A stretch of 32,452 bases of DNA from a virus. Lineage: Duplodnaviria; Heunggongvirae; Uroviricota; Caudoviricetes. The DNA is taken from IMG/VR virus record IMGVR_UViG_2568526722_000001, one strand, 5' to 3'. Below the pieces are notes generated by a model. The model made no database searches. It worked only from the letters and a program-made list of their open reading frames with translations, and was not told where the DNA came from. Of the stretch, positions 630-20,628 are shown in pieces; the first letter of the stretch is position 1, and every line of letters begins with the position of its first letter. The position numbers and the translations under genes are program-made.

Positions 630-663
630 TCCATCCTCTGGTAACCAGTGAAATTCTTCCGTA

Positions 664-3630: not shown

Positions 3631-3728
3631 AATTAAATATTCCTTAAAAATTTGCGTAATTGTGAATAGATGGAGTAATGAGCTATCCAGCCCTGACACC
3701 AGCTCCCATCCGGAAGCTGACAAATGTG

Positions 3729-4493
3729 TTAATCAACAATTGTGATACCGTCTTTCAATGCGTTTTGCTTACCTGCAATATCCAGTGCATCAAAAGCAGA
3801 GCGTTTCATCGTTTTCTGACCAATATCATGCTGTGTCGGACGGGAGCCGCCGCCATTGTTGCCACTGGCTTTCAGGATGTAGTCTTTCTGAGGGTAATTT
3901 TCGACGAGGAACTCCAGCGCCTCATCAAACTGCGCCAGTTCGCCAGGCTTCGCGCGGGAATAAATTTTGTTGCCGGAAGCGTCATAAGCAACGATCTTCC
4001 CTTCTTCCACTTTGAATGCCTGCCCGAAGCGGGCTTGTAATAAATCTGCCGGGATCGCAATTTTATCGGCAATATATTTTGAACCCGCAAAACTACCGCC
4101 AATCATAGAATCGTAAAGCTGCGTCTCCAGCATCTGAGAGCGTTGCTTTTCTTCATCTAATTGCTGCTGAAAATTTTTCGTAATTTCTGCCTTAACCTGG
4201 TCAACCTGTCCCGCATCGAGCAGCTTTTTCTGGTCGATTTTTGACAGCATTTCCAGTGCCTCGATCGCCTTCTTCGGGTCTTCGATAGCGGCAAACTTAG
4301 CCAGTTTTTCCTCTGCAGCTTCTTTAGCCAGGCGATGATTTTTTGCCTCGCCATTAAGCTCTGTAATTTTTTTTGTCGCCAGCGGTGCATCGAAGCCAAT
4401 TTCTTTACCATCGTCGTGCACATAAACTGGCAGGCCAGCAGTATCAATTTCTGCGTATTGTTTTCCGTTAATCTCGACCGTTTTCAGTTTCAT
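3729..4493 (-). CDS. Coiled-coil, charged phage protein, possibly a head scaffold-like protein; start uncertain
   Basis: ORF of 278 codons rich in K/E/A/Q ([30 protein letters not shown]...). It sits downstream of the head-morphogenesis gene, where scaffold genes usually lie. Candidate starts are the ATGs at 4493 and 4538 and the GTG at 4565; none has a strong ribosome-binding site. Confidence 0.4.
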
Positions 4494-4549
4494 ATTAGTA
4501 CCTGGTTTAAGTCTTCCGACAGTTACGCTGCTCACCATCCGGATCGCAG

Positions 4550-4578
4550 CAATAAAAAAGGCCACCCGAAGGTAGCCT
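4550..4578 (-). terminator. Intrinsic terminator (8-bp stem, UUCG tetraloop, U-tract) just after the head-morphogenesis gene
   Basis: Minus-strand RNA reads aggcuaccUUCGgguggccu followed by uuuuuuauu. It lies 20 nt downstream of the stop at 4598. Confidence 0.5.
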
Positions 4579-4597
4579 GTTGTAATAAATGATTTAT

Positions 4598-5713
4598 TTA
4601 AATCCCTGCTTTTCTGAATACCTGTGCATCACGCTCACGGAGCTGCTTCAGCGTCAGCCATTCGCCTTTATCGGTGTAAAATTCATCTGGCGACATACCA
4701 CCATCCCGAATCAGCTTTGCTCGGGTTTCCCCCACAATCTGTTTTTGTCTGGTGTAAGGCTGACGCAAAAACCATTCCCTGTAGGTTGTATCTCCGGCCA
4801 CCACGCCATCCATGCTGGCCCGCTCAGCCGGGGAAATATCGCGAACATCAATACCCAGTTCCTTCGCTGATTTCAGAATGAACGTTTCCGTTGAGCGGCA
4901 GCAGAAATGAATTTTTCCCGGCCCCTGCAAATAAGGCACGCTGTGACCTACAGGTTTATTATTCAGCGTATATTTGAGGCGATCCCTGATTCGACATTGT
5001 GGCGTAGTACGATTATCAAGCGTTGATAACCATTGCTTACCCTTAATCAAATCATTATTCGCGCTGGCAAAACTCTCACGGGCAGTAGCAGCAAGATGTC
5101 CAACCGCTGTTTTTGCAATGCTGGCCGCATTAGCCCGGCTCATCTGCAATGCACCATCCTGAAATCCCTTACTGACATGTCCCCGAATTTTTCTTGCGAT
5201 CTGCTCATTGGTATCCCCCAGCAAAAAACCCTGACGCACTGTATTTGTTATGCGTCTGAGCCGATCCGCCTCAAGATCTGAGGCCCACTCACTGAGCAGT
5301 CGTCCCTGGAATGGTCGCGCCATTGCAGCGGCATAAAGTGCATCAGGAGAGATACCAACCAGAGGGTGAACATCAGCAACAAAATCAGGTAGCATAGAAT
5401 CAAACAGACTTAACTGATAACCAGCCTCATAAATTGCCAGCTCGTTCAGCTCTCCGGAGAGACGGGTAAACATGCTGTTAATAGCAGCGCGGTTAACCTC
5501 TCTGACACTCGCCAGAAGTGACTCCAGGCGCGTAACGGTAAAACTACCAGGATCGAGGCTGTCCAGTGCTACCAGCAGGCGAGCTGTAAGCTCCGCATCG
5601 CTGTCATTCAGTATTTTCACCATTCTGGCAGCCACACCAGTGCTATAGCGGGATATCCAGACTGCATGAGCAATTGATTCATCACGCAGCCGTTCATTCA
5701 CGGTTTGCATCAT
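4598..5713 (-). CDS. Phage head morphogenesis protein (SPP1 gp7 / Mu gpF family)
   Basis: 371 aa with features I associate with this family (for example ...TTPQCRIRDR...), located directly downstream of the portal gene. Starts at an ATG ATG pair at 5713 and overlaps the portal stop. Confidence 0.8.
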   Translation of the reverse strand: MMQTVNERLRDESIAHAVWISRYSTGVAARMVKILNDSDAELTARLLVALDSLDPGSFTVTRLESLLASVREVNRAAINSMFTRLSGELNELAIYEAGYQLSLFDSMLPDFVADVHPLVGISPDALYAAAMARPFQGRLLSEWASDLEADRLRRITNTVRQGFLLGDTNEQIARKIRGHVSKGFQDGALQMSRANAASIAKTAVGHLAATARESFASANNDLIKGKQWLSTLDNRTTPQCRIRDRLKYTLNNKPVGHSVPYLQGPGKIHFCCRSTETFILKSAKELGIDVRDISPAERASMDGVVAGDTTYREWFLRQPYTRQKQIVGETRAKLIRDGGMSPDEFYTDKGEWLTLKQLRERDAQVFRKAGI

Positions 5714-7100
5714 TGATTTCCATCAGCATTACACTCTGATTTTTTAATTCATCGATCACTTCCTCTGGACGGGAATCCTGATCGATAAATTTCAACGCCT
5801 GCAACACCCGAACCGCATCAATCTGACGTATATCACCGCCCTGACGCAATGACTGAACAGCCAGCGCGGAGGATGAGTCAAACACCTGGGCAGATACATC
5901 CAGTTCAGTGCGCACATCCACATTGCCACCGCAACTCTCTCCGATCCATTCCGCCATTATCTGGAGAATATTATCGAGGGCATCTTCGAGGGAGTTCGCC
6001 ATTGTATAAAGCGGCGAGTTTTCCTGCATTCGCTCTTCATTAGTCTGATCAACAGATTTGGTGGATGTATTTTCAGCACGCAGAAGTTTAGCGCCGGCAT
6101 GACGCATCTGATTTTCCAGCTTCTCAAGTGATGTTTCGCCAGATTCTATCGCTGCGCCACTATGTTCAACATATTCGAGGCCATTTTTTGTTCTGTCCTC
6201 AAAAATCGTAGCGGTGGATGCACCAACCGTCAGTTCTTCATTCCTGTCCAGCCCGTAGGCCACCAGCAATGGAACGCGGGCAACATGAAGAATATTGTCC
6301 TGCTCGCTCTGGCTTTGCCAGTGCTTGATATTCAGCAAGCCAAGATTAAGCAATGGCGGTGTACCACGCATAAATCCTGTTTTCTTCGTGTACAGTGTTA
6401 CCAGAGGAATATCATCACGGCTGGTATTCCATGACTCATGAAGCGTCCAGACAGATTCGCCATTAGTGCCTTCGCTACGTCGATAAATTTCAACTCGACG
6501 GGGCATAATATGGCGGATCTGCTCCACCTTCTTCTGCCCGAAATCATCACCATCAATAATGATGACCTCTTTTATACGCAAATCAGTGAGAACAACTTTC
6601 CCTTTTTCAACTTTCGATTTCCATCCAATAACCTGGCGTGGATTCAGCATCGTAACGTACGGACGACCACCGGCCGCGTTTTCATCGGCTTTTGTCCGAA
6701 TCTCTTTCATATCCGTTCGTGGATAGTCCACCAGCGCATGTGCCACACCATACTGAAATGCGAGGCTGAAAAATTGCTGCGCCCACACATCCAGTCGGCT
6801 CCCCTCCATGTCGATATTTTCTGCATATTCCCTGATTTTTGCCGGCGTTTCCTCACTCAATACTGTCGGCTCTGCAAATATGCGCCCAATATTTTGCTTG
6901 ATGCTTTCTTCATACACAGGAAGTAGCGTAGCCACAGACAGGCGTTTTTTATAAGCGTCTTCATCTTCGTTAGGCCATTTTGGGAGATAATTTTCCCCCT
7001 GCCTGCGCATTTCAAGCGTACCGCCCATCAGTGCGTCGTTAATATCCCACGCCTCCAGCATATCGTTATAGTCGAGGTTGGGTGTTGATATATCAGCCAT
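5694..7100 (-). CDS. Portal protein
   Basis: 468-aa ORF immediately downstream of the large terminase subunit and upstream of the head-morphogenesis gene. Size and position are typical for a portal protein; ATG start confirmed at 7100. Confidence 0.7.
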   Translation of the reverse strand: MADISTPNLDYNDMLEAWDINDALMGGTLEMRRQGENYLPKWPNEDEDAYKKRLSVATLLPVYEESIKQNIGRIFAEPTVLSEETPAKIREYAENIDMEGSRLDVWAQQFFSLAFQYGVAHALVDYPRTDMKEIRTKADENAAGGRPYVTMLNPRQVIGWKSKVEKGKVVLTDLRIKEVIIIDGDDFGQKKVEQIRHIMPRRVEIYRRSEGTNGESVWTLHESWNTSRDDIPLVTLYTKKTGFMRGTPPLLNLGLLNIKHWQSQSEQDNILHVARVPLLVAYGLDRNEELTVGASTATIFEDRTKNGLEYVEHSGAAIESGETSLEKLENQMRHAGAKLLRAENTSTKSVDQTNEERMQENSPLYTMANSLEDALDNILQIMAEWIGESCGGNVDVRTELDVSAQVFDSSSALAVQSLRQGGDIRQIDAVRVLQALKFIDQDSRPEEVIDELKNQSVMLMEINDANRE

Positions 7101-7102
7101 AA

Positions 7103-8404
7103 TTAAATCCGAAGTGATGTGACTCTTCCGGTCGGTTTGACAATAGGGAATTGCTTAACGATGAAATAACCTCCGGCATCATTCGGGTGATCATTGCCAG
7201 ATTTTTTATCAGGCTCCCCCTTCTCATCCCAGACCTGTTGCTCCAGAGATTCGGCATATAACGGGCAACGCTTCACATTAACTTTATAGCGACGCTCACC
7301 ATTGGCATTGCAGAACATTGCATTCATTGAGTTAACGCGATCTTTTACTGGCGGGTTCGAGCTGTTCACCACAACGTTAAAACCAGCCTGCTTAAGCTGG
7401 GCTATATCCGTCGTACTTGCGTTACTTGATTTTCTGGAATCCCCGGAAGCATCTGGATAAATATAAATTTCCCTCACTTTCCGGTAATCATTCCCATCAT
7501 ACAGCCAGAAGCGTTCTTTAATGATGCGGATCATATCCGGCGTATCGTAGGCATTGATGATTTCAGTTACCGCACATGGAAGCCCCAAACGCAGCACATG
7601 GACGATTCCCGCCATCTTTCCAACGTTAAAATCCATCCCAATATAAATCGGCTCCCCTGGCTGCTCCACTTCTTCGCAATTATTCAGTTTCCGGTCAAAC
7701 TGATGGTAAACAGTACCACTTGTCAGGTTAGTAAACTGTCCTCGCAGATAGGCTTTAATCAGCTCTGGAGGGTATGATTCAAGAAGCGAAGGAATGTAAT
7801 CTGCTGGCAGGTTCTTTTCATTATCGAAAGTAGATGCCTGCACCAGACCATACAGTGAGGCCAGCTCTGTTTTTTCACGCACGGCTTTAACAAACTGCTC
7901 GTAGACAAATTTGAATCCTTCCGGCGTGGTTGTAACGTCAATACCGTTGCGAAGTCCATCAATCTTATAACGCATACGCGCAATTATCTTGCGCCACGCC
8001 GTTCTGGCTTTTTCCTTCGGCAAAATGTCCAGTTCATCCACCAACGCATTACCAATTTTGAAACCGACGATCGTTTGTGGCTTCTCCATCGATCTGCAGA
8101 TAGTGGTTCCCCGATACTGGCGTCCGTAATAAAAGTGAACCTCTTTATTTCCCTCATTAATTTTTACGTTCAATCCCCAGTCAGCAGCAACTTCTTCCAC
8201 TGTAGGGTAAAAAATATCGCGAATTTGGGGATACGTTGGCGCAAAATATCCCTGATTTATACCTGGATGCTCCCAAATCCCCTTGCATATGCCGCCACAC
8301 CCAACCCATGTTTTGCCCGAGCCAAAACCAGCAATATAGGCTTTAAATTTATGGGGCATTGAAAGAAATCGCGCCTGAGGCACATTAAGCGTCGGAGAGA
8401 TCAT
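7103..8404 (-). CDS. Terminase large subunit
   Basis: Walker A motif (AGFGSGKTW) near the N-terminus and a size of about 433 aa. The ATG at 8404 has an AAGGAG Shine-Dalgarno with 8-nt spacing; the track ORF begins at a GTG at 8413. Confidence 0.85.
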   Translation of the reverse strand: MISPTLNVPQARFLSMPHKFKAYIAGFGSGKTWVGCGGICKGIWEHPGINQGYFAPTYPQIRDIFYPTVEEVAADWGLNVKINEGNKEVHFYYGRQYRGTTICRSMEKPQTIVGFKIGNALVDELDILPKEKARTAWRKIIARMRYKIDGLRNGIDVTTTPEGFKFVYEQFVKAVREKTELASLYGLVQASTFDNEKNLPADYIPSLLESYPPELIKAYLRGQFTNLTSGTVYHQFDRKLNNCEEVEQPGEPIYIGMDFNVGKMAGIVHVLRLGLPCAVTEIINAYDTPDMIRIIKERFWLYDGNDYRKVREIYIYPDASGDSRKSSNASTTDIAQLKQAGFNVVVNSSNPPVKDRVNSMNAMFCNANGERRYKVNVKRCPLYAESLEQQVWDEKGEPDKKSGNDHPNDAGGYFIVKQFPIVKPTGRVTSLRI

Positions 8405-9479
8405 CTTCATCACTCCTTACTCTGGCATCAACCACATTAATATTGATCGCCACAGGCTGGGGATGTTCATTATCTTCCACCGTTTCGATCTCTTTGCGCA
8501 GCTTCTGGTTTTCCATTCTGCGCCGTTCAATTTCCAGTTCCTGTAGCCGCTTATCTGCACATAAAGCCCCGCCAGCAGAAAGCAAACGCAACAATTCACG
8601 CCGGGCGGCAGCCTTATCCTCCAGCAGGATCTCAACGCCGAATTTTCCGAATTTTGCCCCTGCATATAATTGCCGCGCATCCCCATCAAGCAGAGTGGTA
8701 TCAGCCATATAAAGCTGTCCCGTTCCCTCACCGCAGCACTTCGGGCAGTCCGGATTGGGTATGGCGTTATCAACAAAGCCGAGGCCTCCATATTCCGGTT
8801 CGGGTTTGCCATCTCTGGAAGCCTGCGCCGCTGCCTTGTCGAATTCTGCTATATCGCGCCACTGGTAGAGATGATTCTCGCCCCAGCAATAACGGCAGTT
8901 AACACGGCGAAATTGTGCAAGCTGATTGGGGTCGGCCAGGACAATGGCCATCAACTGACTCACTAGTAAATCCAGGTCTGCGGTATAGCGTTTCTGGTAC
9001 TGATTGCGGAAGTAGCTGATAGCGCGAAAAACCCTGGCATTTCTAAGCATACGACTGGCGTTGCTGTTAGCTGTCGCACCTTGCCCCTCATAACCGGCTA
9101 GTCGGTACGCCTCTGTCGGCTTTTTACCCTGAGCAACAAGCATCGCAAACTTAGCCTGCTGGTCAGAAATGCCGAATTCATCGGGACAGAACGAAAATTC
9201 CTCCGCGTCGCCCTCATTCAGGCCCGCATCGAATACTGGCTTTTTTTCCTGAGATTTTTCGTTCCGCTTTTGTGCAGTCTGCGCAGATTTTTTCTGCGCA
9301 CTTTTTTGCGCAGTTTTGCGCATTTCTGTCTGCGCATTTTTCGGAGTTTTTTTGATGTAACGACGGGCTGTTGCGTAATTCAGTCCCCTTGCTTCACACC
9401 ATGCCACCGGAGATATACCGGAGCGGGTGTATTCAGCAATATACTCCTGCTGCAACGCCCCCCAGTCCGGTCTGCTCAT
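8385..9479 (-). CDS. Terminase small subunit-like DNA-binding protein
   Basis: 364-aa ORF directly upstream of and overlapping the large terminase. It has an N-terminal HTH-like region, a lysine/alanine/glutamine-rich repeat and an acidic C-terminus. ATG at 9479 with an AGGA Shine-Dalgarno. Confidence 0.6.
   Translation of the reverse strand: MSRPDWGALQQEYIAEYTRSGISPVAWCEARGLNYATARRYIKKTPKNAQTEMRKTAQKSAQKKSAQTAQKRNEKSQEKKPVFDAGLNEGDAEEFSFCPDEFGISDQQAKFAMLVAQGKKPTEAYRLAGYEGQGATANSNASRMLRNARVFRAISYFRNQYQKRYTADLDLLVSQLMAIVLADPNQLAQFRRVNCRYCWGENHLYQWRDIAEFDKAAAQASRDGKPEPEYGGLGFVDNAIPNPDCPKCCGEGTGQLYMADTTLLDGDARQLYAGAKFGKFGVEILLEDKAAARRELLRLLSAGGALCADKRLQELEIERRRMENQKLRKEIETVEDNEHPQPVAININVVDARVRSDEDDLSDA
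9280..9336. repeat. Five phased TGCGCA hexamers each followed by a T-tract (candidate pac or terminase-binding site)
   Basis: TGCGCA occurs at 9280, 9295, 9307, 9317 and 9331, each followed by 3-6 T residues. The array lies inside the small terminase gene and encodes the AQK-type protein repeats. Confidence 0.5.
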
Positions 9480-9482
9480 CAG

Positions 9483-9734
9483 TTAGTCCTGATTTTTATC
9501 CACCCTGAGTAGTTCGCGCAGAGCAAAGGCATCCCCTTTTCTGGCAAGCTTAAACAATGCCGCTCGTAACTCGGCTTCACCTTTCGCTCTGCCCTTACGG
9601 ATGGCCGCATAAAAATCTGTCATTGCTTCCCGATTTTCTTTCAGTCGGTTCAGATCAACATCCAGAACGTCAGCGATTTGTTGTGCAGTCATCCGGCACG
9701 CTGCCAGAGACTCGACTTTCGAATACGGAATCAT
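9483..9734 (-). CDS. Small putative DNA-binding protein of 83 aa upstream of the terminase genes
   Basis: ATG at 9734 preceded by GGGGGTGA. The stop lies 3 nt before the small terminase start. The 5' end overlaps the upstream gene by about 65 nt, so the start is uncertain. Confidence 0.45.
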   Translation of the reverse strand: MIPYSKVESLAACRMTAQQIADVLDVDLNRLKENREAMTDFYAAIRKGRAKGEAELRAALFKLARKGDAFALRELLRVDKNQD

Positions 9735-10602
9735 TTGTCACCCCCATTGATATGCAGGGTGTCTTCTTCCTGTATTTTTCGTGAAGGATTTTTACTGCAG
9801 CGTTGTTCCAGGTGACCTGATGGTGAATGCGTTTATGGCTGGCACCCATCAGTGAAATTTTTACGCACGACGGCGCATACATGACGGAGTAAAAACTTTT
9901 AACGTAGGTTCCGGAATCCAGATACAGCTCGGTCATTCCGCCGCTGTTTTTCTGCGTCTGTTTCTGCCCTAACTGGACAGCACCGATCGTCATAAACAAT
10001 TCACCACAGCGACCGAGATTCGTGTACGTATTCACATCCTCGTTAATGCGCCCCATGAATGAGAACGGTCGATCAACCGAACAGATAAAGCTGTTCATTG
10101 CCTTGCGTTTCACCCACGAAGCATGGCCGCCATTGTCACCAAGAAAATCCCCGCCCTGCGACATAGCGATGGAAAGAGCAGGTATTGATTCGTAGTACGC
10201 CAGCATTTCAGAAAGGATCGCATCCAGTTTCCTTATCGGAAAATAGGCCTGGTCATAGTTGCGATCCACCCGAAACTGGAACTCGTGATAATCATCATCG
10301 AGCTGAATGAAGTATTTACACCCGACCAGTTTTGCCAGGTCGAAACAGGCATTACGGGCGTAAAAAATTGAGCGGCGGTCACAGAAATTATCGGCTTCGT
10401 CAAAACGACTGGCGATATCGGCTTTGGAAAACACCAGCACCTGTTCACCAAATTCAGCCATGTACTGATGCCGTGTCTTATCTTCATCATCAACAACGAT
10501 AAAAATTTTCCCGGTATAGCCAGCACGACGCAACGTCCGGTAAGTCAGAACTTTGTCCGGTCGCCCGTGAGTCAGAATAAAGGCGCAAAAATCATCACGC
10601 AT
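9670..10602 (-). CDS. DxD-motif protein, possibly a nucleotide-sugar transferase-like enzyme (intact counterpart of the K-12 Rac ydaY remnant?)
   Basis: Start taken at the ATG at 10602, which has a strong GGAGGAGG Shine-Dalgarno and overlaps the ParB-like stop (ATGCGTGA). Contains IVVDDED and QLDDDYHEF motifs. The functional call is an inference from these motifs only. Confidence 0.45.
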   Translation of the reverse strand: MRDDFCAFILTHGRPDKVLTYRTLRRAGYTGKIFIVVDDEDKTRHQYMAEFGEQVLVFSKADIASRFDEADNFCDRRSIFYARNACFDLAKLVGCKYFIQLDDDYHEFQFRVDRNYDQAYFPIRKLDAILSEMLAYYESIPALSIAMSQGGDFLGDNGGHASWVKRKAMNSFICSVDRPFSFMGRINEDVNTYTNLGRCGELFMTIGAVQLGQKQTQKNSGGMTELYLDSGTYVKSFYSVMYAPSCVKISLMGASHKRIHHQVTWNNAAVKILHEKYRKKTPCISMGVTNDSVFESRVSGSVPDDCTTNR

Positions 10603-11386
10603 ATTCCTCCTCCTCACCACCATGCATGATCTCCACCATGCGCTGCGTCATCCGGACAAATCCATTTTCAATAGCCTGCTGATAATCAATGATCACCAGC
10701 GCCGACTCCTCGAAAAAACACTGAATTTCAGAGGGGGCGTGAGCGTAATAGTCCGCAATTCTGCTGAAATTAAACACCGTGTGACGTTCTGCCGCACACA
10801 GGAGGAATTTCTCAATATCAGGCTCAAGGGACGCCGAACGTATCCGGCTGATCAGCTCCTGAGTTTTCGTATCGTCGTACAGTTCACTGATATCCGGTTT
10901 ACCGCCCGACGGCTCATAAACAGGCGTATCAATTTTCGTCGTATACGGCTCCTCCTCATTTCCTGTACCGGGCAAAACATCCGTCAACAGTTCATCAATT
11001 TCTGTCGGGATGAAGCCTGTCAGGGAGACATCAAAATCAGCATTGATTAGGTCCGACAGCTCCATCCGCAACAGATCTTCATCCCAGCCAGCATTCATCG
11101 GCAGGCGATTATCTGCCAGGCGGTACGCCTTTTTCTGCTCCTCCGTCAGGCCAGACAGAACAATGACCGGAACAGAATCCATTTTGAGCATTTCAGCCGC
11201 CATAACACGACCGTGACCCGCAATAATTTCGCCCTTTTCGTCAATCAGCACCGGATTAGTCCAGCCGAATTGCTTAATACTTTCTACCAGTTGTGCCACC
11301 TGCTCAGTACTGTGCGTCCTGGCGTTGTGCGCATACGGTGACAATTCTTGTAATGGGCGATAGACTATCTTTAATTTCTCGCTCAT
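10595..11386 (-). CDS. ParB-like nuclease domain protein (full-length counterpart of K-12 Rac ynaK)
   Basis: The N-terminal region (YRPLQELSPYAHNARTHSTEQVAQLVESIKQFGWTNPVLID...GHGRVMAA) has the ParB/Srx-like signature. ATG at 11386 with an AAGG upstream. Confidence 0.7.
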   Translation of the reverse strand: MSEKLKIVYRPLQELSPYAHNARTHSTEQVAQLVESIKQFGWTNPVLIDEKGEIIAGHGRVMAAEMLKMDSVPVIVLSGLTEEQKKAYRLADNRLPMNAGWDEDLLRMELSDLINADFDVSLTGFIPTEIDELLTDVLPGTGNEEEPYTTKIDTPVYEPSGGKPDISELYDDTKTQELISRIRSASLEPDIEKFLLCAAERHTVFNFSRIADYYAHAPSEIQCFFEESALVIIDYQQAIENGFVRMTQRMVEIMHGGEEEEYA

Positions 11387-11523
11387 ACAGCCTTGCTTTA
11401 TGAATAAAACGCACCCCAGCAGCCAGTGCTACTGGGGGCGGAGGTGTTGCTGGTAAAGTTAGGTATTGGATCAATGAGTGAGTCAATATAATATTAAACT
11501 CACAATTATAAATCAGCCATATA

Positions 11524-12981
11524 TTAGGAGCGCCAAAAAAAACCTGAAAACAATATAATAACAGGATAAATTTCAAGGCGACCAAGAATCATAGCTATGC
11601 ACATTAAATATTTTGCAATGTCATTAAGCACTCCGAATGACGATGCAGTAGCCCCAAAACCTAATCCCATATTATTAATACATGCAGCCACTGTTGCAAA
11701 TGATGTAAGAAAATCATATCCCATACCATTTAACACCAGTATAAAAAACACCGTGAAGAGAGTATAAAGAAAAAAGAAACTCCATACAGACCTCATTACA
11801 CGATCTGTAACTATCTTCCCTCCTACATTTACACTCAACAACGCTCTGGGATGAGAAAGCTGATTTATCTCGTGTTTGCTTTGTTTGAAAAGTATAAGAA
11901 ATCGAAGTGACTTAATTCCACCACAAGTTGAACCTATACATCCCCCAAAGAAACTTGACGACAGCAAAAACACTATCGTGTGCGTGGGCCAGTTTGCATA
12001 ATCCTGCGTAGCTAAACCATTATCAGTGAGCATGGAGCTGGCAAGAAAAAACGAATGAATAAAACTTCCATGCAAGTCATACATACCTATATGCCAGACC
12101 TGGAAAGAGGTAACAATGATCACCCCTAAGGCTATTAACAGAAAGAAACGAAGTTCAATATCTCTGATTAAAGGTTTTATCGTTTTCCTGCTAATAACAA
12201 TATACCAAAGAGTGAAGTTGAAAGCCGATAGCAGGGAAAAAGAACCAGCCACCAGCTCAACCAAATAGTTATTAAAATATCCGATACTCTCGCTATGAGT
12301 TGAGAAACCACCAAGCGAAACTGTGGAAATCCCGTGACAAATAGCATCAAACAAAGGCATTCCTGCAAGTCTATAACAGACAATACAAGCAATACCTAAT
12401 AAAGAATAAGTTATCCACAGTGTCCGTGACGTATCGGCCAGGCGGGGAGTGAGTTTGTCATCCTTAAATGGCCCCGGCATTTCTGACTGATAAAGCTTTG
12501 CACCACCAATACCCAATAATGGCAATACAGCAACCGCCAGAACAATAACTCCTAAACCACCTATAAAATTTAACTGTGACCGATAGTACAAATATGCCCG
12601 AGGTAATGAACTAACATCATCAATTACAGTTGCTCCTGTTGTTGTTATTCCAGAAACCCCTTCAAACAGAGCATCAATGAACGTTAAATTAAGTTCTGAG
12701 TCAATCCATAAAGGGAATGCACTAATAACAGAAAACAAAATCCAAAACATTACAATTATAATAAACCCATCACGGGTACGTAATTGAATGCCAGATTTCT
12801 TAGTTGTATACCACGCTCCGCCACCAATGCAAAAAAATATAACGAAAGTTATAAAGAAAACGAACAGGCTTTTTTCTTTATAAAACAATGCTACAACCAT
12901 TGGTGGCAACATTGAAAGACTATAGAGCCAAACCAGGAACCCACACATATGAGTAACAACTCTTACATGAGATGTATTCAT
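11524..12981 (-). CDS. trkG: Potassium uptake protein TrkG
   Basis: 485-aa polytopic membrane protein from MNTSHVRVV..., matching my memory of the Rac prophage TrkG from E. coli K-12. The gene is visibly AT-rich compared with its neighbours. Confidence 0.9.
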   Translation of the reverse strand: MNTSHVRVVTHMCGFLVWLYSLSMLPPMVVALFYKEKSLFVFFITFVIFFCIGGGAWYTTKKSGIQLRTRDGFIIIVMFWILFSVISAFPLWIDSELNLTFIDALFEGVSGITTTGATVIDDVSSLPRAYLYYRSQLNFIGGLGVIVLAVAVLPLLGIGGAKLYQSEMPGPFKDDKLTPRLADTSRTLWITYSLLGIACIVCYRLAGMPLFDAICHGISTVSLGGFSTHSESIGYFNNYLVELVAGSFSLLSAFNFTLWYIVISRKTIKPLIRDIELRFFLLIALGVIIVTSFQVWHIGMYDLHGSFIHSFFLASSMLTDNGLATQDYANWPTHTIVFLLSSSFFGGCIGSTCGGIKSLRFLILFKQSKHEINQLSHPRALLSVNVGGKIVTDRVMRSVWSFFFLYTLFTVFFILVLNGMGYDFLTSFATVAACINNMGLGFGATASSFGVLNDIAKYLMCIAMILGRLEIYPVIILFSGFFWRS

Positions 12982-13118
12982 ATCTAAATATTCTTTCAAT
13001 TATAACCACCTTGCTGCAATATTATGATTATACTGTATAAAATTTAACTCCTCTTAGATCTTACTTCACTGTTCCTTATGAAACAATCATCAAAATGAAT
13101 CATATTGTAGTTAAGATT

Positions 13119-13583
13119 TTACTTTAAACACTGCTCGGTTATGTATTGCTGAGCACCTTCAAGTTGGGCCTGCATCATTACCAGTCGTTCCCGGAGGGTG
13201 AAATAATCCCGTTCAGCGGTGTCTGCCAGTCGGGGGGAGGCTGCATTATCCACGCCGGAGGCGGTGGTGGCTTCACGCACTGACTGACAGACTGCTTTGA
13301 TGTGCAACCGACGACGACCAGCGGCAACATCATCACGCAGAGCATCATTTTCAGCTTTCGCATCAGCTAACTCCTTCGTGTATTTTGCATCGAGCGCAGC
13401 AACATCACGCTGACGCATCTGCATGTCAGTAATTGCCGCGTTCGCCAGCTTCAGTTCTCTGGCATTTTTGTCGCGCTGTTCTTTGTAGGCGATGGCGTTA
13501 TCACGGTAATGATTAACACCCCATGACAGGCAGACGACGATGCAGATAACCAGAGCGGAGATAATCGCGGTTACTCTGCTCAT
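13119..13583 (-). CDS. rzpR: Rz i-spanin (intact lambda Rz homologue)
   Basis: [55 protein letters not shown]... is near-identical to lambda Rz as I remember it. The start overlaps the endolysin stop. Confidence 0.9.
13178..13363 (-). CDS. rzoR: Rz1 o-spanin lipoprotein, embedded in the +1 frame of Rz
   Basis: [61 protein letters not shown] has a signal peptide with a lipobox cysteine and a proline-rich body. It is near-identical to lambda Rz1. Confidence 0.85.
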
Positions 13584-14056
13584 ACCTCAATCTCTCTGAC
13601 CGTTCCGCCAGCTTCTTTGAATTTTGCAATCAGACTGTCAGCCTTATGCTCGAACTGACCATAACCAGCGCCCGGCAGTGAAGCCCATATATTGCTGCAA
13701 CGGTCGATAGCCTGACGGATATCACCGCGATCAATCATCGGCAAAGCGCCACGCTCTTTAATCTGCTGCAGCGCTACAGCATCCTGACTTTCTGGAGAAA
13801 AATCTTTCAGGCCAAGTTGCTTGCGGTAGGCATCCCACCAGCGTGAAAGAAGCTGGTAACGTCCAGCGGCTGTTGATTTGAGTTTCGGATTTAGCGTGAC
13901 AAGTTTGCGGGGGTGATCGGAGTAATCAGTGAACAGTTCGCCACCGACAATAACATCATAACCGTGATTTCTGGTTTTCTGCCGTCCGTTATCTGTTCCT
14001 TCTGACCATGCCACCATATCAAGGAAAGCTTTACGCTGGGAATTAAGTGTCTGCAT
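13580..14056 (-). CDS. Endolysin (lambda R-like lytic transglycosylase)
   Basis: 158-aa protein: [62 protein letters not shown]... is near-identical to lambda R. AAGGAG Shine-Dalgarno 6 nt before the ATG. Confidence 0.9.
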
Positions 14057-14059
14057 TAA

Positions 14060-14401
14060 TTACTCCTTATGGGCACCGAACTTGTTACCGATGACCCTCA
14101 TTGCCGCACCACGAATAGCATCAACACCAATCAGCCCCACCCCACCACCAATGGCAACAGAAAGTGATTTAGGCCATCCGACATACTCAAGCGCGGATGC
14201 AAAGGTCAGCGTCAGAGCACCACAAAGCAGAATCTCAAGCGTTTTTCGTTTCCAGCCGCCGCCACCGCCAAAATAGGCAATGCGCAAACCAGCCATAATA
14301 ATTGACATAACCACTGCACCCAGCGGCGTATCTCCACGCCACCAACTTTGTAAGAGTTCCAGTAAGTCAGGCCAGGAATGAGGGGCATTGTGCATTTTCA
14401 T
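14060..14401 (-). CDS. Holin (class I-like) with an M-K-M dual-start motif
   Basis: Lies immediately upstream of the endolysin and has three predicted transmembrane segments. GGAGG sits 8 nt before the ATG at 14401, and a second in-frame ATG lies two codons later (MKMHNAP...), as in lambda S107/S105. The track ORF begins at a GTG at 14410. Confidence 0.7.
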   Translation of the reverse strand: MKMHNAPHSWPDLLELLQSWWRGDTPLGAVVMSIIMAGLRIAYFGGGGGWKRKTLEILLCGALTLTFASALEYVGWPKSLSVAIGGGVGLIGVDAIRGAAMRVIGNKFGAHKE

Positions 14402-14494
14402 AAGCCTCACCTCCGAGAGTTCGGATGGTGCTAAGTGTAAGATTCAGGCTCTCAGGCTTGCTAACAAGAAGTCGAGGATGTTTCCGGAGCCTAA

Positions 14495-14524
14495 CAACGA
14501 AAAAGCCCCGGGACATGCCGGGGC
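14495..14524 (-). terminator. Intrinsic terminator between the moron gene and the holin
   Basis: GC-rich 7-bp stem (gccccgg / ccggggc) with a 6-nt loop. On the minus strand the hairpin is followed by uuuucguugu. Confidence 0.5.
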
Positions 14525-14618
14525 CAGATGGAGTGCCAGATTAAGCTTCTGGCGGTATATACTCGTGTTTGATATCGTTAAATCGCCAAAAGTAACAATT
14601 CAAACAAAGAGGATTTTT

Positions 14619-14780
14619 ATGTCTGAAAAAAACAAACCACAAGGTGAAAATAAACCTCAGCACCCCGTGGCACCAAAACCAACTCCAACACAAAGTACTA
14701 CAGACTTTGCTACACGTCGTGTTTTTGTTGGAGATTCTGCCGACTCAGTCATTGAACATATAAAAAAACAGCCGAGATAA
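14619..14780 (+). CDS. Small hypothetical protein of 53 aa
   Basis: The ATG at 14619 is preceded by AAGAGG. The product MSEKNKPQGENKPQHPVAPKPTPTQSTTDFATRRVFVGDSADSVIEHIKKQPR is proline/lysine-rich with no recognisable domain. It converges on and overlaps the 3' end of the moron gene. Confidence 0.3.
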   Translation: MSEKNKPQGENKPQHPVAPKPTPTQSTTDFATRRVFVGDSADSVIEHIKKQPR

Positions 14781-15318
14781 ACATCGCCGCTACCGGAGCA
14801 AGGATGGTATACATCCTTGCTTTATCGAGACTCGTGCGGATTTTCTCATTTTCCAACAGTAACTCTCTTGCTGTATCACTCAAGTCAACAAGGCGATACC
14901 TTCGTATAAGCGGCAATAACTTATCAGGTCCTAAATATCCTGCATCAGCGAATATTTTAAAGCTCGAGGGCTCCATATCCTTATATTTTTCATGATATAG
15001 ATGATCAGGAGGGGCATTGATCAGGCCCCTAACCTTCACAGATAAACCAGTACATACCAAGTAAATGGCGCACCATGTCCATAGTAATGTAAATGTGGTA
15101 ATTCCGGCGGTGAGAAAATCGAAATTAGTTTTCTGTGTCAGCAATAAAAAAGATGAACCAATTCCAACAATCTGAATGTTCAGAAGTTTGTATCCATTCT
15201 CAACATTGGTTTTGTTAGAAAGATGAATCTCTCGTATCGTCTCTTCCCCTTGTTTTTCAAGATAATCGACGAGCTCATCATCTACTCCTAAAAAATAATC
15301 TTTAGGTAGTTCTCTCAT
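14749..15318 (-). CDS. Uncharacterised membrane protein (moron between Q and the lysis cassette)
   Basis: ATG at 15318 with a strong GGAGGTGAG Shine-Dalgarno. The 189-aa product has a cytoplasmic-looking N-terminal domain, then hydrophobic segments (FLLLTQKTNFDFLTAGITTFTLLWTWCAIYLVC and MYTILAPVAAMFISAVFLYVQ). The gene is AT-rich. Confidence 0.55.
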   Translation of the reverse strand: MRELPKDYFLGVDDELVDYLEKQGEETIREIHLSNKTNVENGYKLLNIQIVGIGSSFLLLTQKTNFDFLTAGITTFTLLWTWCAIYLVCTGLSVKVRGLINAPPDHLYHEKYKDMEPSSFKIFADAGYLGPDKLLPLIRRYRLVDLSDTARELLLENEKIRTSLDKARMYTILAPVAAMFISAVFLYVQ

Positions 15319-15426
15319 CTCACCTCCACATCCTGTACTGAAAACAATTTTACCAGAATGTCTCGATTCTAGGTATTCCGCCAGGAATCGCGCTCCAGAA
15401 ATGAAACATCAGGTTCGCCAGTACCA

Positions 15427-15456
15427 GAAACAACAAAACCCGCTCAATGGCGGGTT
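15427..15456 (-). terminator. Intrinsic terminator downstream of Q (tR'-like)
   Basis: Hairpin aacccgc / gcgggtt with a 6-nt loop, followed on the minus strand by uuguuguuucugg. It lies about 85-115 nt downstream of the Q stop. Confidence 0.5.
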
Positions 15457-15539
15457 CTGGTAAAGTTCATGCGCTTGGTTCGCCTCGCGATACAGCTTTG
15501 CGAAGCATACCGGAATTGAAGCAGTTTATGCGTAAAAAA
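15457..15539 (-). promoter_or_regulatory. Candidate late promoter (pR'-like) and Q-utilisation region
   Basis: Positional inference only: the interval between the Q stop and the tR'-like terminator. The minus strand contains TTGATT, then 17 nt, then TTCAAT as a weak -35/-10 candidate. Confidence 0.3.
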
Positions 15540-16082
15540 TCAAGCTATTTTTTGAGCAAATGATTCTCGCATGGGAATATATAGGGCATACTCAGCAACA
15601 GCCAACCAATTAGCAATTCGCTTTTCGCATGTGCTAAAACACCACTCAGGATGTGCATCATTTAGCAATTCAGCCATTTTGCGCTTAGTCATCCCCCGTC
15701 CTTCATACCGTTGCCGGAGGACACTAATCAATCCAGGATGCTCTGCCAGCACCTCACTTATGACTCTATCAATACATAACGCCTCTGCATCAGTACAATG
15801 CGCCAGCCAGGTCTTTTGCTTGCCATTGATCATCTCTCGCAAAAACGCTTCCAGCTCAGGTTTCTCTATTCCCGCTTTTTTCATCCTGCGCAGGGCTTCA
15901 TTGACGGCTGTTTTCGTCAATTTTTTGGATGCCAGCAACTGGTTAAACATATTTCCCGTCTTACCGCCGCCAATATACGACCAGCGCCCCCACATGCGCA
16001 GTTTTCCCTGAATCCAGACACTTTCCAGCGTGGTGAGACGAAGGTGTTCCCCGCTTTTGCCTGTATTTGTTGGGTAAATCAT
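15540..16082 (-). CDS. Late-gene antiterminator Q
   Basis: The protein (MIYPTNTGKSGEHLRLTTLESVWIQGKLRMWGRWSYIGGGKTG...) resembles lambdoid Q antiterminators. It lies upstream of the lysis genes. The ATG at 16082 overlaps the upstream stop (ATGA) and has GAAGG at -6. Confidence 0.75.
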   Translation of the reverse strand: MIYPTNTGKSGEHLRLTTLESVWIQGKLRMWGRWSYIGGGKTGNMFNQLLASKKLTKTAVNEALRRMKKAGIEKPELEAFLREMINGKQKTWLAHCTDAEALCIDRVISEVLAEHPGLISVLRQRYEGRGMTKRKMAELLNDAHPEWCFSTCEKRIANWLAVAEYALYIPMRESFAQKIA

Positions 16083-17433: not shown

Positions 17434-17586
17434 TCACTCCTCAGGTTCGTAAGCTGTGAAGACAGCGACCTCCGTCTGACCGGTTCGGATTTGTACCTCG
17501 CAGAAGTCTTTCCTTGTTACCAGTGCCATCACAACGACGGTAATACAGATGACAATCAGGGCGATTAACATCGTCTTTTGCTGCAT
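17434..17586 (-). CDS. hok: Hok/Gef-family type I toxin
   Basis: The 50-aa product MQQKTMLIALIVICITVVVMALVTRKDFCEVQIRTGQTEVAVFTAYEPEE is highly similar to HokC(Gef) and HokD(RelF) as I remember them. A perfect 8-bp stem hairpin (ggcgaggg / ccctcgcc) follows the stop at about 17405-17427. Confidence 0.8.
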   Translation of the reverse strand: MQQKTMLIALIVICITVVVMALVTRKDFCEVQIRTGQTEVAVFTAYEPEE

Positions 17587-17600
17587 CACAGCCTACTTAC

Positions 17601-17734: not shown

Positions 17735-19564
17735 ATGAGCACTTCCGCATACAAGAGCAAAATTCGAACACTCCAGTGCGCGTTAAAAAACGGTGAATTT
17801 GAACCATTCATACAACATATCCGTTTTCCATACTTTAAAAATATAGAGCAGAATGCAAGGATCGATTTTCAGTTCCCTATAACGGCTTTAGTAGGAAAAA
17901 ATGGAACTAATAAAAGTTCTGTTATCAAAGCGCTATTTGGTTGCCCACATGGTAAAAATATAACTCGTTATTGGTTCACAACTGAAACAGATGAGTTTCC
18001 TGACCTAAAACTTGCTGATGGCAGTTCTCTTAAACCTAGATATATATATGGATATAAAAATGCTGATGGCCGTTTAGTTGAAATACTCCAAGCACGTATC
18101 AATGCTACCAAGAAAACAATCGATTATTGGGAAACAAGTCGACCATCTGTTGGTGATAACATGGAGAGTATTTCGGATGATCTGGGTGCTAATAGTAATG
18201 CAACCAGATGGAAAAAAATCAAGAAGGGATTGGTTTTCCTAGATTTCAGATCGGAAATAAGTGCATTTGATAGATGTATGTATCACTCTGATTTTAAATT
18301 AAGAAAGAAGAAGAGTGGTGTATTAATTACAAAGCAAGACTATATCAGAAGCAAATCTAAATATATAAAGAAAGCTTTTGATGAAAAGCTAAGTAATTTA
18401 AGACTCTGGGGGGCGGAAACCATTGTTAAAAATATAACCTTGGCGCCAGAACTAGTTGAGCACGTCTCATTTATATTAGGGAAAAAATATAAAGTCATTA
18501 AATTTCTTGAGCATCGGTTATTTGGAACCAGAGGAGGAACCGCTTTACTTTCAACTGATAAGTTGAACTATACAGAAGCGTTTGCTGGAAGTGGTGAATT
18601 TGCAATAGTTTCACTAATACTCAATATTTATTCGGCCAAACCTAATTCATTAATTCTTCTTGACGAACCAGAAGTTTCACTTCACCCTGGTGCACAAAAA
18701 AGGATGATGGATGTTCTGTACTCTATTGTTGAGCAGAAAAAACATCAAGTGGTAATATCAACCCATTCTCCTGTTATTGTGAACACTCTTCCCAAAGATG
18801 CCATTAAATTATTTGTTTTTGATGAAGAGAGTGAAACAGCTAAAATAGTTCAAAATATAGCACCGGATGAAGCTTTTATAGAGCTAGGGCATGATATTAA
18901 CAAGAAAACAATAATTGTAGAAGATAAATTAGCTAAAGCAATTATAGATAAAGCGATTAAAAATGATGAAAGATTAAGCTTATCATTTAGTGTAAGTTAT
19001 ATACCAGGTGGTTCGGAGACCATTTTAAGCAAGCATCTTCCCAGTTACGCTGTGGTAGAACGCAATGATATTTTGTTTTTACTTGATGGTGATAAAAACA
19101 AAAAAATAAAACCAGTAAGAATTAGTGAAATTGCTGATGCTGATTTAGTTAATACAATGTGCAAATATTATGGTTGCGAGTTAATTATCAATGCCAGTGG
19201 TAGTAATGGCAAAAAAAATGAACAAGAATCTAATAGACTCAAAAGGCAAGTGCTTGAGTATGCATTCAATAAAGTGCAGTATTTACCATTTGATACTCCC
19301 GAACAATTACTCATTGAAAAGGCAATTACGCCAAGTGAAAAAGAAATAATTGATTCACAGACCTGGAGTTCTAATGATCCAGAACTGTATAAGAATCAAA
19401 TAAGATTATTAGCGCAACACCTGTATGATAAAGAAGAAGTAAATGCAGAGGAAATTTTTTGCCTCCAACAAATGATGACCGCAAGACTTAAAAATGAATT
19501 GCCTGAATTTATAAAAATAAGAAAAATAATTACTCAGGCTCTTGACCGTGGTATCATTAGGTAG
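17735..19564 (+). CDS. ABC-type ATPase with a C-terminal TOPRIM-like domain (OLD-family / GajA-like putative nuclease)
   Basis: Walker A (LVGKNGTNKSS); a long insert; signature-like AFAGSGEF; Walker B (LILLDEPEVSLH); H-loop (VISTHSP). The C-terminal region has an invariant-Glu motif (TIIVEDKLAKAII) and a DxD motif (LFLLDGDKNKK) as in TOPRIM. 609 aa, in an AT-rich segment. Confidence 0.7.
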   Translation: MSTSAYKSKIRTLQCALKNGEFEPFIQHIRFPYFKNIEQNARIDFQFPITALVGKNGTNKSSVIKALFGCPHGKNITRYWFTTETDEFPDLKLADGSSLKPRYIYGYKNADGRLVEILQARINATKKTIDYWETSRPSVGDNMESISDDLGANSNATRWKKIKKGLVFLDFRSEISAFDRCMYHSDFKLRKKKSGVLITKQDYIRSKSKYIKKAFDEKLSNLRLWGAETIVKNITLAPELVEHVSFILGKKYKVIKFLEHRLFGTRGGTALLSTDKLNYTEAFAGSGEFAIVSLILNIYSAKPNSLILLDEPEVSLHPGAQKRMMDVLYSIVEQKKHQVVISTHSPVIVNTLPKDAIKLFVFDEESETAKIVQNIAPDEAFIELGHDINKKTIIVEDKLAKAIIDKAIKNDERLSLSFSVSYIPGGSETILSKHLPSYAVVERNDILFLLDGDKNKKIKPVRISEIADADLVNTMCKYYGCELIINASGSNGKKNEQESNRLKRQVLEYAFNKVQYLPFDTPEQLLIEKAITPSEKEIIDSQTWSSNDPELYKNQIRLLAQHLYDKEEVNAEEIFCLQQMMTARLKNELPEFIKIRKIITQALDRGIIR

Positions 19565-19587: not shown

Positions 19588-20628
19588 ATGAAAAAAATCA
19601 AAGTGTTTGACTTCTTTTCCGGTTGTGGTGGAACCAGCCAAGGTTTCCATCAAGCTGGAATGGATATTGTTTTTGGCCTCGATTTCGACGTTGATGCAGC
19701 CAGTTCATTTCGTGCAAATTTCCCGCAGGCTGCTTTTATTAACTCGGACATTAGGTTAATCGACAACAATGCCATAAACAAGTTAGTAAAAAAACATCGT
19801 AATGATTACATTCTTTTTTCAGGATGTGCGCCTTGTCAACCGTACTCTAAGCAAAACTCAAATAAGAAAAATGATGATCCACGATTAGATCTATTAAAGG
19901 AATTCAGTCGCTTTGTAGAGCATTATATGCCTGATTTTATTTTTGTTGAAAACGTGCCAGGAATGCAAAAGTTTAACAAAAATGAAGGAACATTCATGAT
20001 GTTTTTAGAAATGCTTTCATCAAAGGGATATAGTGTAGATTATAAAGTAATGCCAGCTGCGTGGTACGGTGTACCACAGACGCGAGAAAGATTAGTGCTC
20101 ATTGCATCCAAGGATTTTTATGTCGCATTGCCTTCTCCTACACATGGGGTTGGAAATACTCCCTATTCAACAGTAAAGGACTGGATCGCTAATTTACCGA
20201 AGATAGAAGCAGGAGAAAAGCATAATAGTATTCCTGATCATGAAGCTGCACGCTTATCAGAGCTTAATTTACGTAGAATAAAATGCACTCCTGAAGGTGG
20301 AAGTCGAGAATTTTGGCCAGATGAATTGATTTTAGAATGCCATCGTAACCATAAAGGGCATACAGACGTATATGGACGTTTGAGTTGGGACAAACCAGCC
20401 AGCGGACTAACAACTCGTTGTATTAGCTATTCAAATGGACGTTTTGGACATCCAACACAAAATCGAGCAATATCGGTTCGTGAAGCAGCGTGTCTACAAA
20501 CATTTCCTTTGGATTATAAATTTATTGGTTCTTTGCAATCTCGGGCTCGTCAAATAGGAAATGCGGTCCCTCCGAAGATGTCTGAAACGATTGGAAAACA
20601 TTTGCTTAATATAATCAAAGCCTCCTAG
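19588..20628 (+). CDS. DNA (cytosine-5)-methyltransferase
   Basis: Canonical C5-methyltransferase motifs in order: I (FDFFSGCGG), IV (GCAPCQPYS), VI (ENVPGM), VIII (PQTRERLVLIA), IX (RAISVREAACLQTFPLDY), X (QIGNAVPP). Starts 23 nt after the ATPase stop; the track ORF begins earlier at a GTG at 19564. Confidence 0.9.
   Translation: MKKIKVFDFFSGCGGTSQGFHQAGMDIVFGLDFDVDAASSFRANFPQAAFINSDIRLIDNNAINKLVKKHRNDYILFSGCAPCQPYSKQNSNKKNDDPRLDLLKEFSRFVEHYMPDFIFVENVPGMQKFNKNEGTFMMFLEMLSSKGYSVDYKVMPAAWYGVPQTRERLVLIASKDFYVALPSPTHGVGNTPYSTVKDWIANLPKIEAGEKHNSIPDHEAARLSELNLRRIKCTPEGGSREFWPDELILECHRNHKGHTDVYGRLSWDKPASGLTTRCISYSNGRFGHPTQNRAISVREAACLQTFPLDYKFIGSLQSRARQIGNAVPPKMSETIGKHLLNIIKAS

Follow-up and report, generated by a model that had tools for sequence, protein, structure and literature searches.

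What lies between the late antiterminator gene and the lysis genes of a prophage, how it might be expressed and what it might do are the questions raised by IMG/VR virus record IMGVR_UViG_2568526722_000001 (Duplodnaviria; Heunggongvirae; Uroviricota; Caudoviricetes). The record is a 32,452-nucleotide (nt) stretch of DNA, here called the window, and its source is an E. coli Rac-type prophage. Between the Q antiterminator gene and the holin gene, the window carries a cassette that consists of a gene for a 189 amino acid (aa) predicted inner-membrane protein and, convergent to it on the opposite strand, a 53-aa open reading frame, with an intrinsic terminator on each side (Table 1). A moron, in the Hendrix/Juhala definition (HK97/HK022), is a promoter-gene-terminator unit inside a late operon, and morons of the Q-to-lysis slot include Shiga toxin. 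Since Shiga toxin sits there, the choice of cargo that prophages carry in this slot is of practical interest. The original prediction, made from the sequence alone, placed a moron in this stx-like position, and the flanking genes bear this out, with a Q gene of DUF1133/PF06530 upstream and a PF05106 holin gene downstream. The cassette is very probably an autonomous and conserved two-gene moron.

The gene pair and its conservation

Comparison of sequences establishes the anatomy of the cassette, the conservation of the gene pair and of its control elements, coding selection on both genes, and mobility between genomic slots. Approximately 100 loci were collected and reduced to 40 with distinct 189-aa proteins, which form the basis of the counts out of 40 given below. 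A convergent open reading frame of 47–56 aa is found in all 40 loci, across Enterobacterales, and overlaps the larger gene at the 3′ ends by 20–35 nt (32 nt in the window). The small proteins share the pattern M-S-x-x-N-K-P..K-P-Q.., a stretch rich in P, Q and K, the motif D-F-(S/A)-x-x-R-(V/M)-(F/L)-V-G-D-S-A-(D/E), and a basic tail; the small protein of the window has nine basic and six acidic residues. Outside the overlap, the ratio of nonsynonymous to synonymous polymorphism (pN/pS) in the two best-aligned groups is 0.19–0.20 in the annotated frame versus 1.4–1.8 in the other two frames. By this comparison the small open reading frame is under purifying selection and is a conserved partner gene, not an incidental one. 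The original prediction had listed it as a small convergent open reading frame; it exists and converges, but its weight was underrated, as it is a selected gene with its own conserved promoter-like block.

An open reading frame of the same type is also found beside much more distant relatives of the large protein (only 23–35% identity), in a Pasteurella multocida prophage and in metagenome contigs, the metagenome relatives having 23–27% identity. The Pasteurella multocida small protein reads MSNQKPSQPKPQ...VFIGDSVDIPKKK, and in this prophage the two genes abut, without overlap of the open reading frames. A profile search with the small protein yielded stand-alone hypothetical proteins of 41–100 aa only, with no larger or named relatives.

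The 189-aa protein matches PHROG 11870, a family without assigned function, from end to end with an E-value = 6e-108, and this is its sole PHROG match. Relatives are all approximately 189 aa in length, down to about 42% identity, and are found in Escherichia, Klebsiella, Citrobacter, Enterobacter, Salmonella, Serratia, Yersinia, Proteus, Providencia, Morganella, Pantoea, and Sodalis. An exhaustive profile search of 1.84 billion proteins gave only 98 cluster representatives, all of them stand-alone proteins of 160–250 aa. The alignment displays 25 invariant positions, which include the G52-I-G-S-S face of the first transmembrane helix (TM1), W80, P104, an R-R-Y-R-L motif, R140, R142, N157, and P175.

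The searches for remote homologs that the original prediction had proposed gave no specific family or fold. Neither protein of the cassette has a match in Pfam, NCBIfam, or PADLOC (PADLOC-DB 2.0, 2023 library, E-value up to 0.1), and no Pfam holin model is matched by the 189-aa protein at an E-value up to 0.1. A profile search against the sequences of the PDB gave a best E-value of 0.11 (GpsB), which was rejected, and fold searches returned generic long-helix bundles only. Pfam searches with 75 distant family members gave scattered chance matches only, with E-values above 0.002. As the original prediction had stated, no family could be named, in that only function-unassigned PHROGs families are matched. 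A literature search by accession, PHROG numbers, and description found no paper on the cassette family, and RefSeq labels both genes 'hypothetical protein'.

The strong Shine-Dalgarno sequence and the membrane character attributed to the 189-aa protein are confirmed. Hydropathy, charge, the AlphaFold model, and conservation together predict three membrane helices. The model, with a predicted local distance difference test (pLDDT) score of 83, shows three long helices at positions 14–62, 68–92, and 134–188, and the hydrophobic portions are situated at about 45–62, 69–92, and 169–188 as judged by hydropathy and charge, the model, and family conservation. By hydropathy alone TM2 and TM3 are the strongest, while TM1 is placed mainly by the model and by conservation. 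The N-terminal 44 residues are acidic (11 D/E, 6 K/R) and the segment 93–168 is rich in basic residues (14 K/R, 12 D/E). The topology is predicted to be N-in, C-out, the two soluble parts packing together into a bundle in the cytoplasm.

Boundaries, terminators and genomic slots

The two minus-strand hairpins that the original prediction had called terminators are the two top-scoring minus-strand terminators of the 5-kb region in a terminator scan, which gave 11 terminator-like sites compared with 4.7 ± 2.4 in shuffled sequences. Folding gives −18.0 kcal/mol (z = −3.8) for the first hairpin and −16.4 kcal/mol (z = −2.9) for the second. Conservation is stronger evidence than the scan. In a strict search the upstream terminator is found in 32 of the 40 loci, 60–130 nt before the ATG of the 189-aa gene, and the downstream terminator in 28, mostly 86–99 nt from the small-gene ATG. 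In the stem of the second terminator, six of eight pairs show compensatory double-sided changes (15 loci). This terminator acts on late-strand transcription only, because no T tract follows the hairpin on the plus strand. It belongs with the cassette and stands before the holin gene, in agreement with the earlier proposal of a terminator that guards the lysis genes.

Prophages with the same flanks but other cargo served to set the limits of the insert. Approximately 1300 other E. coli genomes match the Q end only, and the best matches reach 15424–15425, the end of the first T tract. Homology to the Q module stops at 15424, and therefore the first hairpin is the tR′ terminator of the Q module and the insert begins immediately after it. 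On the holin side, homology resumes at 14609 in prophage L019, which has the same holin and, as cargo, a 76-aa open reading frame with an opposite-strand YmfI-family gene. Prophage L020 has the same Q and tR′, followed by two tRNA genes and a different lysis module. The insert thus extends from 15424 to about 14609. The G+C fraction is 0.39 for the 189-aa gene and 0.41 for the small gene, compared with 0.47 for Q and 0.51 for the lysis genes. Such boundaries, combined with an atypical base composition, are classic sequence marks of a moron.

Behind Q genes of unrelated families, the terminators differ in their stems but have a tail in common, TTTTG(Y)CGTTTCTGG, and the cassette starts right after it. 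The tail is found at window positions 15424–15440 (minus strand) and at the equivalent places in L002, L012, L049, L061, L071, and L097, and may be a recombination junction between modules.

Most copies of the cassette are situated directly after a Q antiterminator gene. The Q proteins belong to three or four unrelated families; at least 19 of 34 distinct upstream neighbors fall into PF06530 (some also DUF1133), PF03589, or PF06323, and the holins encoded downstream belong to at least six Pfam families. Other slots are used as well. A subclade at about 53–57% identity lies after the tail tube and tail assembly chaperone region, and in at least two loci before the tape-measure gene (cassette coordinates L085:3986–4570 and L090:3998–4570); it keeps both genes but the conserved non-coding block described below is absent. 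The Pasteurella multocida copy (L105:4998–5657) lies next to a RelE/antidote pair and within a few kb of cI/cro/cII. A relative with 23% identity is the first gene after Q and is followed by terminase genes, with no holin gene there.

Many E. coli chromosomes carry the 1.16-kb region with 100% identity, and the complete cassette is present in 223 of 5426 complete E. coli genomes (approximately 4%); K-12 is without it. It is rare outside prophages, with five records among 50,697 deposited phage genomes and two among 72,556 plasmids. The cassette is found in prophages of Klebsiella, Citrobacter, Serratia, Yersinia, Proteus, Providencia, Pantoea, and Pasteurella, and both proteins are unannotated everywhere. 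Thus it is a widespread, uncharacterized, convergent two-gene moron.

Table 1. Positions of the cassette, its candidate control elements and the adjoining late genes in the window
Feature	Position	Strand	Basis or remark
Q-type late antiterminator gene (context, outside insert)	15540..16082	-	Pfam DUF1133, E-value 5e-109; Phage_antitermQ, 4.5e-6
Putative late promoter pR′, within Q 3′ end, TTGGCT-18-TATATT	15576..15605	-	Consensus scan only, 9/12 matches
First intrinsic terminator, tR′ of Q module	15424..15459 (stem 15459-15434, T tail to 15424)	-	10-bp stem
Promoter-like element of 189-aa gene, TGgTAAAAT (extended -10)	15347..15355	-	28 nt upstream of ATG, read from sequence
189-aa inner-membrane protein gene, PHROG 11870 (function-unassigned family)	14749..15318	-	Open reading frame; GGAGG 5 nt before ATG
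Convergent 53-aa partner gene, PHROG 14506	14619..14780	+	AGAGGA Shine-Dalgarno at 14608-14613
Near-invariant non-coding block before small gene, TGATATCGTTAAATCGCCAAAAGTAAC	14570..14598	+	Holds extended -10-like TGnTATCGT
Hairpin GCCAGA-N7-TCTGGC, between block and second terminator	14535..14553	-	In minimum-energy structure
Second intrinsic terminator, cassette/holin interval	14494..14525 (stem 14525-14504, tail to 14494)	-	8-bp stem, 7 G-C pairs, TTTTT
Lambda-S-type holin gene (context)	14060..14401	-	Pfam Phage_holin_3_1 (PF05106), E-value 2e-27; RefSeq start gives 113 aa
Lysozyme gene	13580-14056	-	After holin (open reading frame list)
Rz/Rz1 genes	13119-13583 and 13178-13363	-	After lysozyme (open reading frame list)

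Predicted expression and function

Upstream of the 189-aa gene, TAAAAT or a variant with one change is found 27–35 nt before the ATG in about 36 of the 40 diverged loci, and the surrounding sequence is variable. Two routes of expression had been proposed originally, either Q antitermination through the first terminator only or a promoter of the gene's own in the lysogen. The conserved TAAAAT favors the second route, and the Q-only option is the less favored.

The block before the small gene has the consensus TcTGaTATcGTTAAATCGCcAaAAgTAAC. In a MAFFT alignment of 28 distinct sequences, from E. coli to Yersinia and Pantoea, most positions are at least 80% conserved. Both genes are far less conserved than this, and identity among the 189-aa proteins is only about 50%. 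A regular-expression search gave a block identity of 91%, a value inflated by the selection of blocks, and the MAFFT alignment is the unbiased evidence. The block holds an extended −10-like TGnTAT(C/T)GT about 40 nt before the small-gene ATG, and it is also present in a locus where the cargo differs. It probably represents the promoter and 5′ untranslated region (UTR) of the small gene. A LexA box or phage operator at this promoter was looked for and rejected: no CTG-N10-CAG is seen by eye and the palindrome differs between loci.

A −10 element alone would not call for such conservation over a block of about 30 nt. The block is followed on the late strand by two hairpins and a U tail, an arrangement reminiscent of the 3′ end of a small RNA. 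A hairpin of differing sequence is seen by eye at the equivalent place in other loci, e.g. GCCGCC...GGCGGC and AACCACG...CGTGGTT. In Klebsiella-type loci (L002:6700–7010; L055, L053, L057) one or more tRNA-like sequences, also noted by eye, are situated between the cassette and the holin gene, and the strong terminator follows only after the tRNA-like sequence.

Read on the late strand, the cassette begins with tR′, a spacer of about 70 nt, the −10-like TAAAAT, a leader of about 20 nt with the Shine-Dalgarno sequence, and the 189-aa gene, and ends with the opposite-strand small gene, its Shine-Dalgarno sequence, a conserved putative 5′ UTR of about 35 nt, the extended −10-like block, the hairpin, and the second terminator. 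From this order a working model can be drawn, in which promoter activity, expression in the lysogen, topology, physical interaction of the two proteins, and an exclusion function are inferred. On the available sequence evidence, the cassette's own promoters are probably active in the lysogen. There, transcripts from pR′ would be stopped at tR′, and two face-to-face promoters would drive one mRNA for the membrane protein and one for the small protein. The membrane-protein mRNA would end at the second terminator without reading into the holin gene. The presence of the second terminator is best understood if transcription of the 189-aa gene occurs without Q, because this terminator would keep both this transcript and any leak through tR′ from the holin gene. 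From convergent promoters the transcripts would be fully complementary, and mutual damping is predicted, by transcriptional interference or by antisense pairing. After induction, Q-modified polymerase would ignore both terminators; the late-strand RNA, and with it the membrane-protein mRNA, would thus be raised and the small gene overridden.

In the same model the 189-aa protein would be N-in, with its acidic N-terminal helix and the 75-residue middle segment forming a cytoplasmic bundle atop three membrane helices, one of which carries the invariant G-I-G-S-S face. The small protein, basic and rich in proline and lysine, would be a cytoplasmic partner or regulator. An exclusion factor, one of the two roles offered by the original prediction, is a reasonable guess. 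As to function, we tentatively propose that the prophage expresses the cassette as a module for exclusion or abortive infection at the membrane, the small protein serving as its partner or regulator, although the chance of this is rated well below even. The proposal is made because of the moron architecture, the types of slot, the membrane location of the large protein, and the strict pairing of the genes. The slot types are those that HK97 gp15 and rex/sie-type genes also occupy. Taken as a whole, a doubly insulated, horizontally mobile moron with face-to-face promoters and an exclusion or abortive function is the best explanation, at somewhat less than even confidence.

Several points weigh against this explanation. 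The TAAAAT element has no recognizable sigma-70-like −35, and in most loci the TG extension is absent. A generic promoter scan called neither this element nor the small-gene site, so that the promoter assignments are drawn solely from conservation. Searches found no PADLOC defence model, no SieA homology, no Pfam SieB, RexB, or holin match, and generic helical folds only. As the defence, exclusion-family, holin, and fold searches gave no specific match, the function is argued from context alone. Also, the finding of most copies directly after Q could reflect a real link to late transcription rather than an insertion hot spot.

Among known systems, the HK97-type morons are the closest in general form: the cassette is likewise situated between genes that are adjacent in related phages, and has an atypical G+C fraction, its own terminator, and a promoter-like element ahead of it. 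It differs from them in having two genes, a convergent partner, an opposing promoter-like element, and an upstream terminator. HK97 gene 15 lies between the tail chaperone and tape-measure genes, and the tail-slot subclade is found in a slot of this type. The product of gene 15, gp15, is an inner-membrane superinfection-exclusion protein. However gp15 is 62 aa in length and is unrelated in sequence to the 189-aa protein.

The arrangement of the small gene resembles that of phi80 taiEcA, an opposite-strand gene inside the Q operon that is expressed in the lysogen and reduced on Q expression (PMC11364771). The TaiEcA/AtiEcA 'noncontiguous operon' and the cassette are alike in that the Q late operon encloses an opposite-strand gene beside a same-strand partner, the small gene here lying on the plus strand flanked by minus-strand late genes. 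Tai differs in being a 26-kDa soluble inhibitor of tail assembly encoded upstream of the packaging genes, whereas the cassette encodes a 53-aa disordered-looking peptide and a membrane protein; the two are set apart by size and predicted location. Tai/Ati is an experimental precedent for an opposite-strand gene damped by Q.

P22 SieA is of similar size (164 aa) and is also a multi-pass inner-membrane protein, encoded in a prophage and with its own annotated promoter. It has another genome position and no small partner gene. Homology to SieA was tried and rejected (hhalign probability 0.5%, E-value = 0.11 over 14 columns). Lambda RexA/RexB offers the logic of a membrane protein with a soluble partner; rex-type genes sit near the repressor, and the Pasteurella copy of the cassette is near the repressor as well. 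However RexB has four TM helices and RexA is 279 aa in length, the cassette genes are convergent and not co-transcribed, and there is no Pfam Rex or Sie match.

Type I toxin-antitoxin loci with convergent, 3′-overlapping antisense RNAs, such as txpA/RatA and bsrG/SR4 of B. subtilis, display the same convergent transcription and the same 3′ overlap of a membrane-protein gene and a short opposite-strand gene. A doubtful alternative is that the pair is an addiction or abortive system of this general kind, in which a depolarizing membrane toxin is checked by the small protein or by its mRNA acting as 3′-overlapping antisense (type I-like, dual-function RNA). The convergence of the genes with a 20–35-nt overlap in every enterobacterial locus, the strict co-inheritance of the pair, and the complementary charges of the acidic large-protein N-terminus and the basic small protein are all in keeping with it. 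So are the persistence of an intact cassette in Rac-type prophages without structural genes, e.g. that of FORC 064, and a Leclercia locus in which the large gene has two frameshifts and the small gene is intact, the order of decay expected for toxin and antidote. However type I toxins are less than 60 aa and their antisense RNAs are non-coding, while the cassette encodes a 189-aa protein with large cytoplasmic segments and a selected protein-coding gene. Pfam and NCBIfam give no toxin-antitoxin family match, and the Pasteurella pair abuts without overlap. Since the protein sequence of the small open reading frame is under selection, antisense RNA alone is not the whole story.

A related but speculative thought, which we hold unlikely, is that the locus is a prophage switch of a class not previously recognized. 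From two face-to-face promoters inside the late operon, the lysogen would make mainly the small protein and Q would flip the locus to the membrane protein, or the reverse, with the products forming an effector/antidote pair. Such a pair might be a membrane-pore abortive effector checked by the small protein, which is also encoded on its antisense RNA, or a Tai/Ati-like defence with self-immunity at the inner membrane.

A rather improbable alternative is that the 189-aa gene is a Q-dependent gene of the lytic cycle, made only on read-through of tR′, either as a lysis-timing accessory (antiholin-like or a holin modulator) or as a late block to superinfection or re-adsorption. The gene is on the late-operon strand, is the first after Q and tR′, and directly precedes the holin gene in most loci; distant relatives are also first after Q, and the product is a small multi-pass membrane protein with a face of small residues in TM1. 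Set against this are the terminator between the 189-aa gene and the holin gene and the conserved −10-like element upstream. Copies of the cassette in tail and near-repressor slots, and ahead of terminase genes with no lysis genes behind it, make a dedicated lysis role unlikely. The partner holins span at least six unrelated families, which argues against a specific holin interaction, and the protein matches no holin or antiholin model in Pfam or PHROGs. The lysis-timing factor suggested by the original prediction is thus not favored, given these slots and the dual-start antiholin motif already carried by the local holin.

The core of the element might instead be an RNA, the open reading frames being secondary, with block, hairpin, and terminator forming the 3′ end of a 3′UTR-derived small RNA or a nut/boxA-like site on the late strand; this appears improbable. 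The block is far better conserved than either coding gene, and on the late strand it is conserved and single-stranded, with two hairpins and then a U tail behind it. Within the block, GCGATTTAACGA matches 9 of 12 positions of the rrn boxA sequence, but by our own estimate the probability of a chance match of this quality in a region of such size is roughly 10%. A search of the region against Rfam gave no credible family match, the tail-slot subclade lacks the block but keeps both genes, and both open reading frames are clearly constrained at the protein level.

That the cassette is selfish or neutral passenger DNA, without function for phage or host, is very improbable: it is in only 4% of complete E. 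coli genomes and has no known phenotype, but across genera the protein has retained a length of 189 aa and 25 invariant residues, the small open reading frame is under purifying selection, and the terminator stem shows compensatory changes.

Were it only a passenger, the finding would be ordinary. Under the preferred reading, the cassette could add a new module to those known for phage exclusion or abortive infection at the membrane. It would also show, in a natural setting, how convergent transcription can exert control within a phage late operon. The clean architecture, with two terminators, two opposed promoter-like elements, overlapping 3′ ends, and the conserved block, makes it a compact and easily testable candidate.

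Neighbouring genes in the window

On the late strand, the cassette is preceded by a DUF1367 gene, a YbcO/DUF1364 gene, and the Q gene. The Q protein belongs to PHROG 753 ('anti-termination protein Q-like') and to Pfam DUF1133/PF06530, and RefSeq annotates a 180-aa protein at the same position. From the putative pR′ to tR′, the leader transcript would measure about 145 nt and would be the counterpart of the 6S RNA of lambda.

The start of the holin gene, at 14393–14401 (minus strand), reads ATG AAA ATG and thus encodes M-K-M. In lambda S the M-K-M dual start is the source of the antiholin and holin forms.

In the Rac prophage of FORC 064 the order is intR, recET, kilR, sieB, racR, ydaSTUV ... 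Q, cassette, holin, lysozyme, Rz, trkG. In the window trkG, which encodes a potassium transporter, is found at 11524–12999 (minus strand) as another insert, between Rz and the head genes. In FORC 064, trkG is followed by a tail-fibre-assembly pseudogene and sitABCD. The window keeps the terminase, portal, P22-type capsid, and tape-measure genes below trkG, on the side of positions 1–11400, and because these genes are present its Rac-type prophage is far more complete than that of FORC 064.

On the other side of the Q region, a Hok/Gef-type peptide gene at 17434–17589 (minus strand) adjoins the gene of a 609-aa ATP-dependent nuclease at 17735–19564 (plus strand), which gives PADLOC matches to HEC-04, ATPase-Toprim, and PtuA/OLD-like models. 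A DNA cytosine methyltransferase gene follows at about 19588–20628 (plus strand). Together these genes appear to make up a small defence islet, situated between the replication genes and those ahead of Q.

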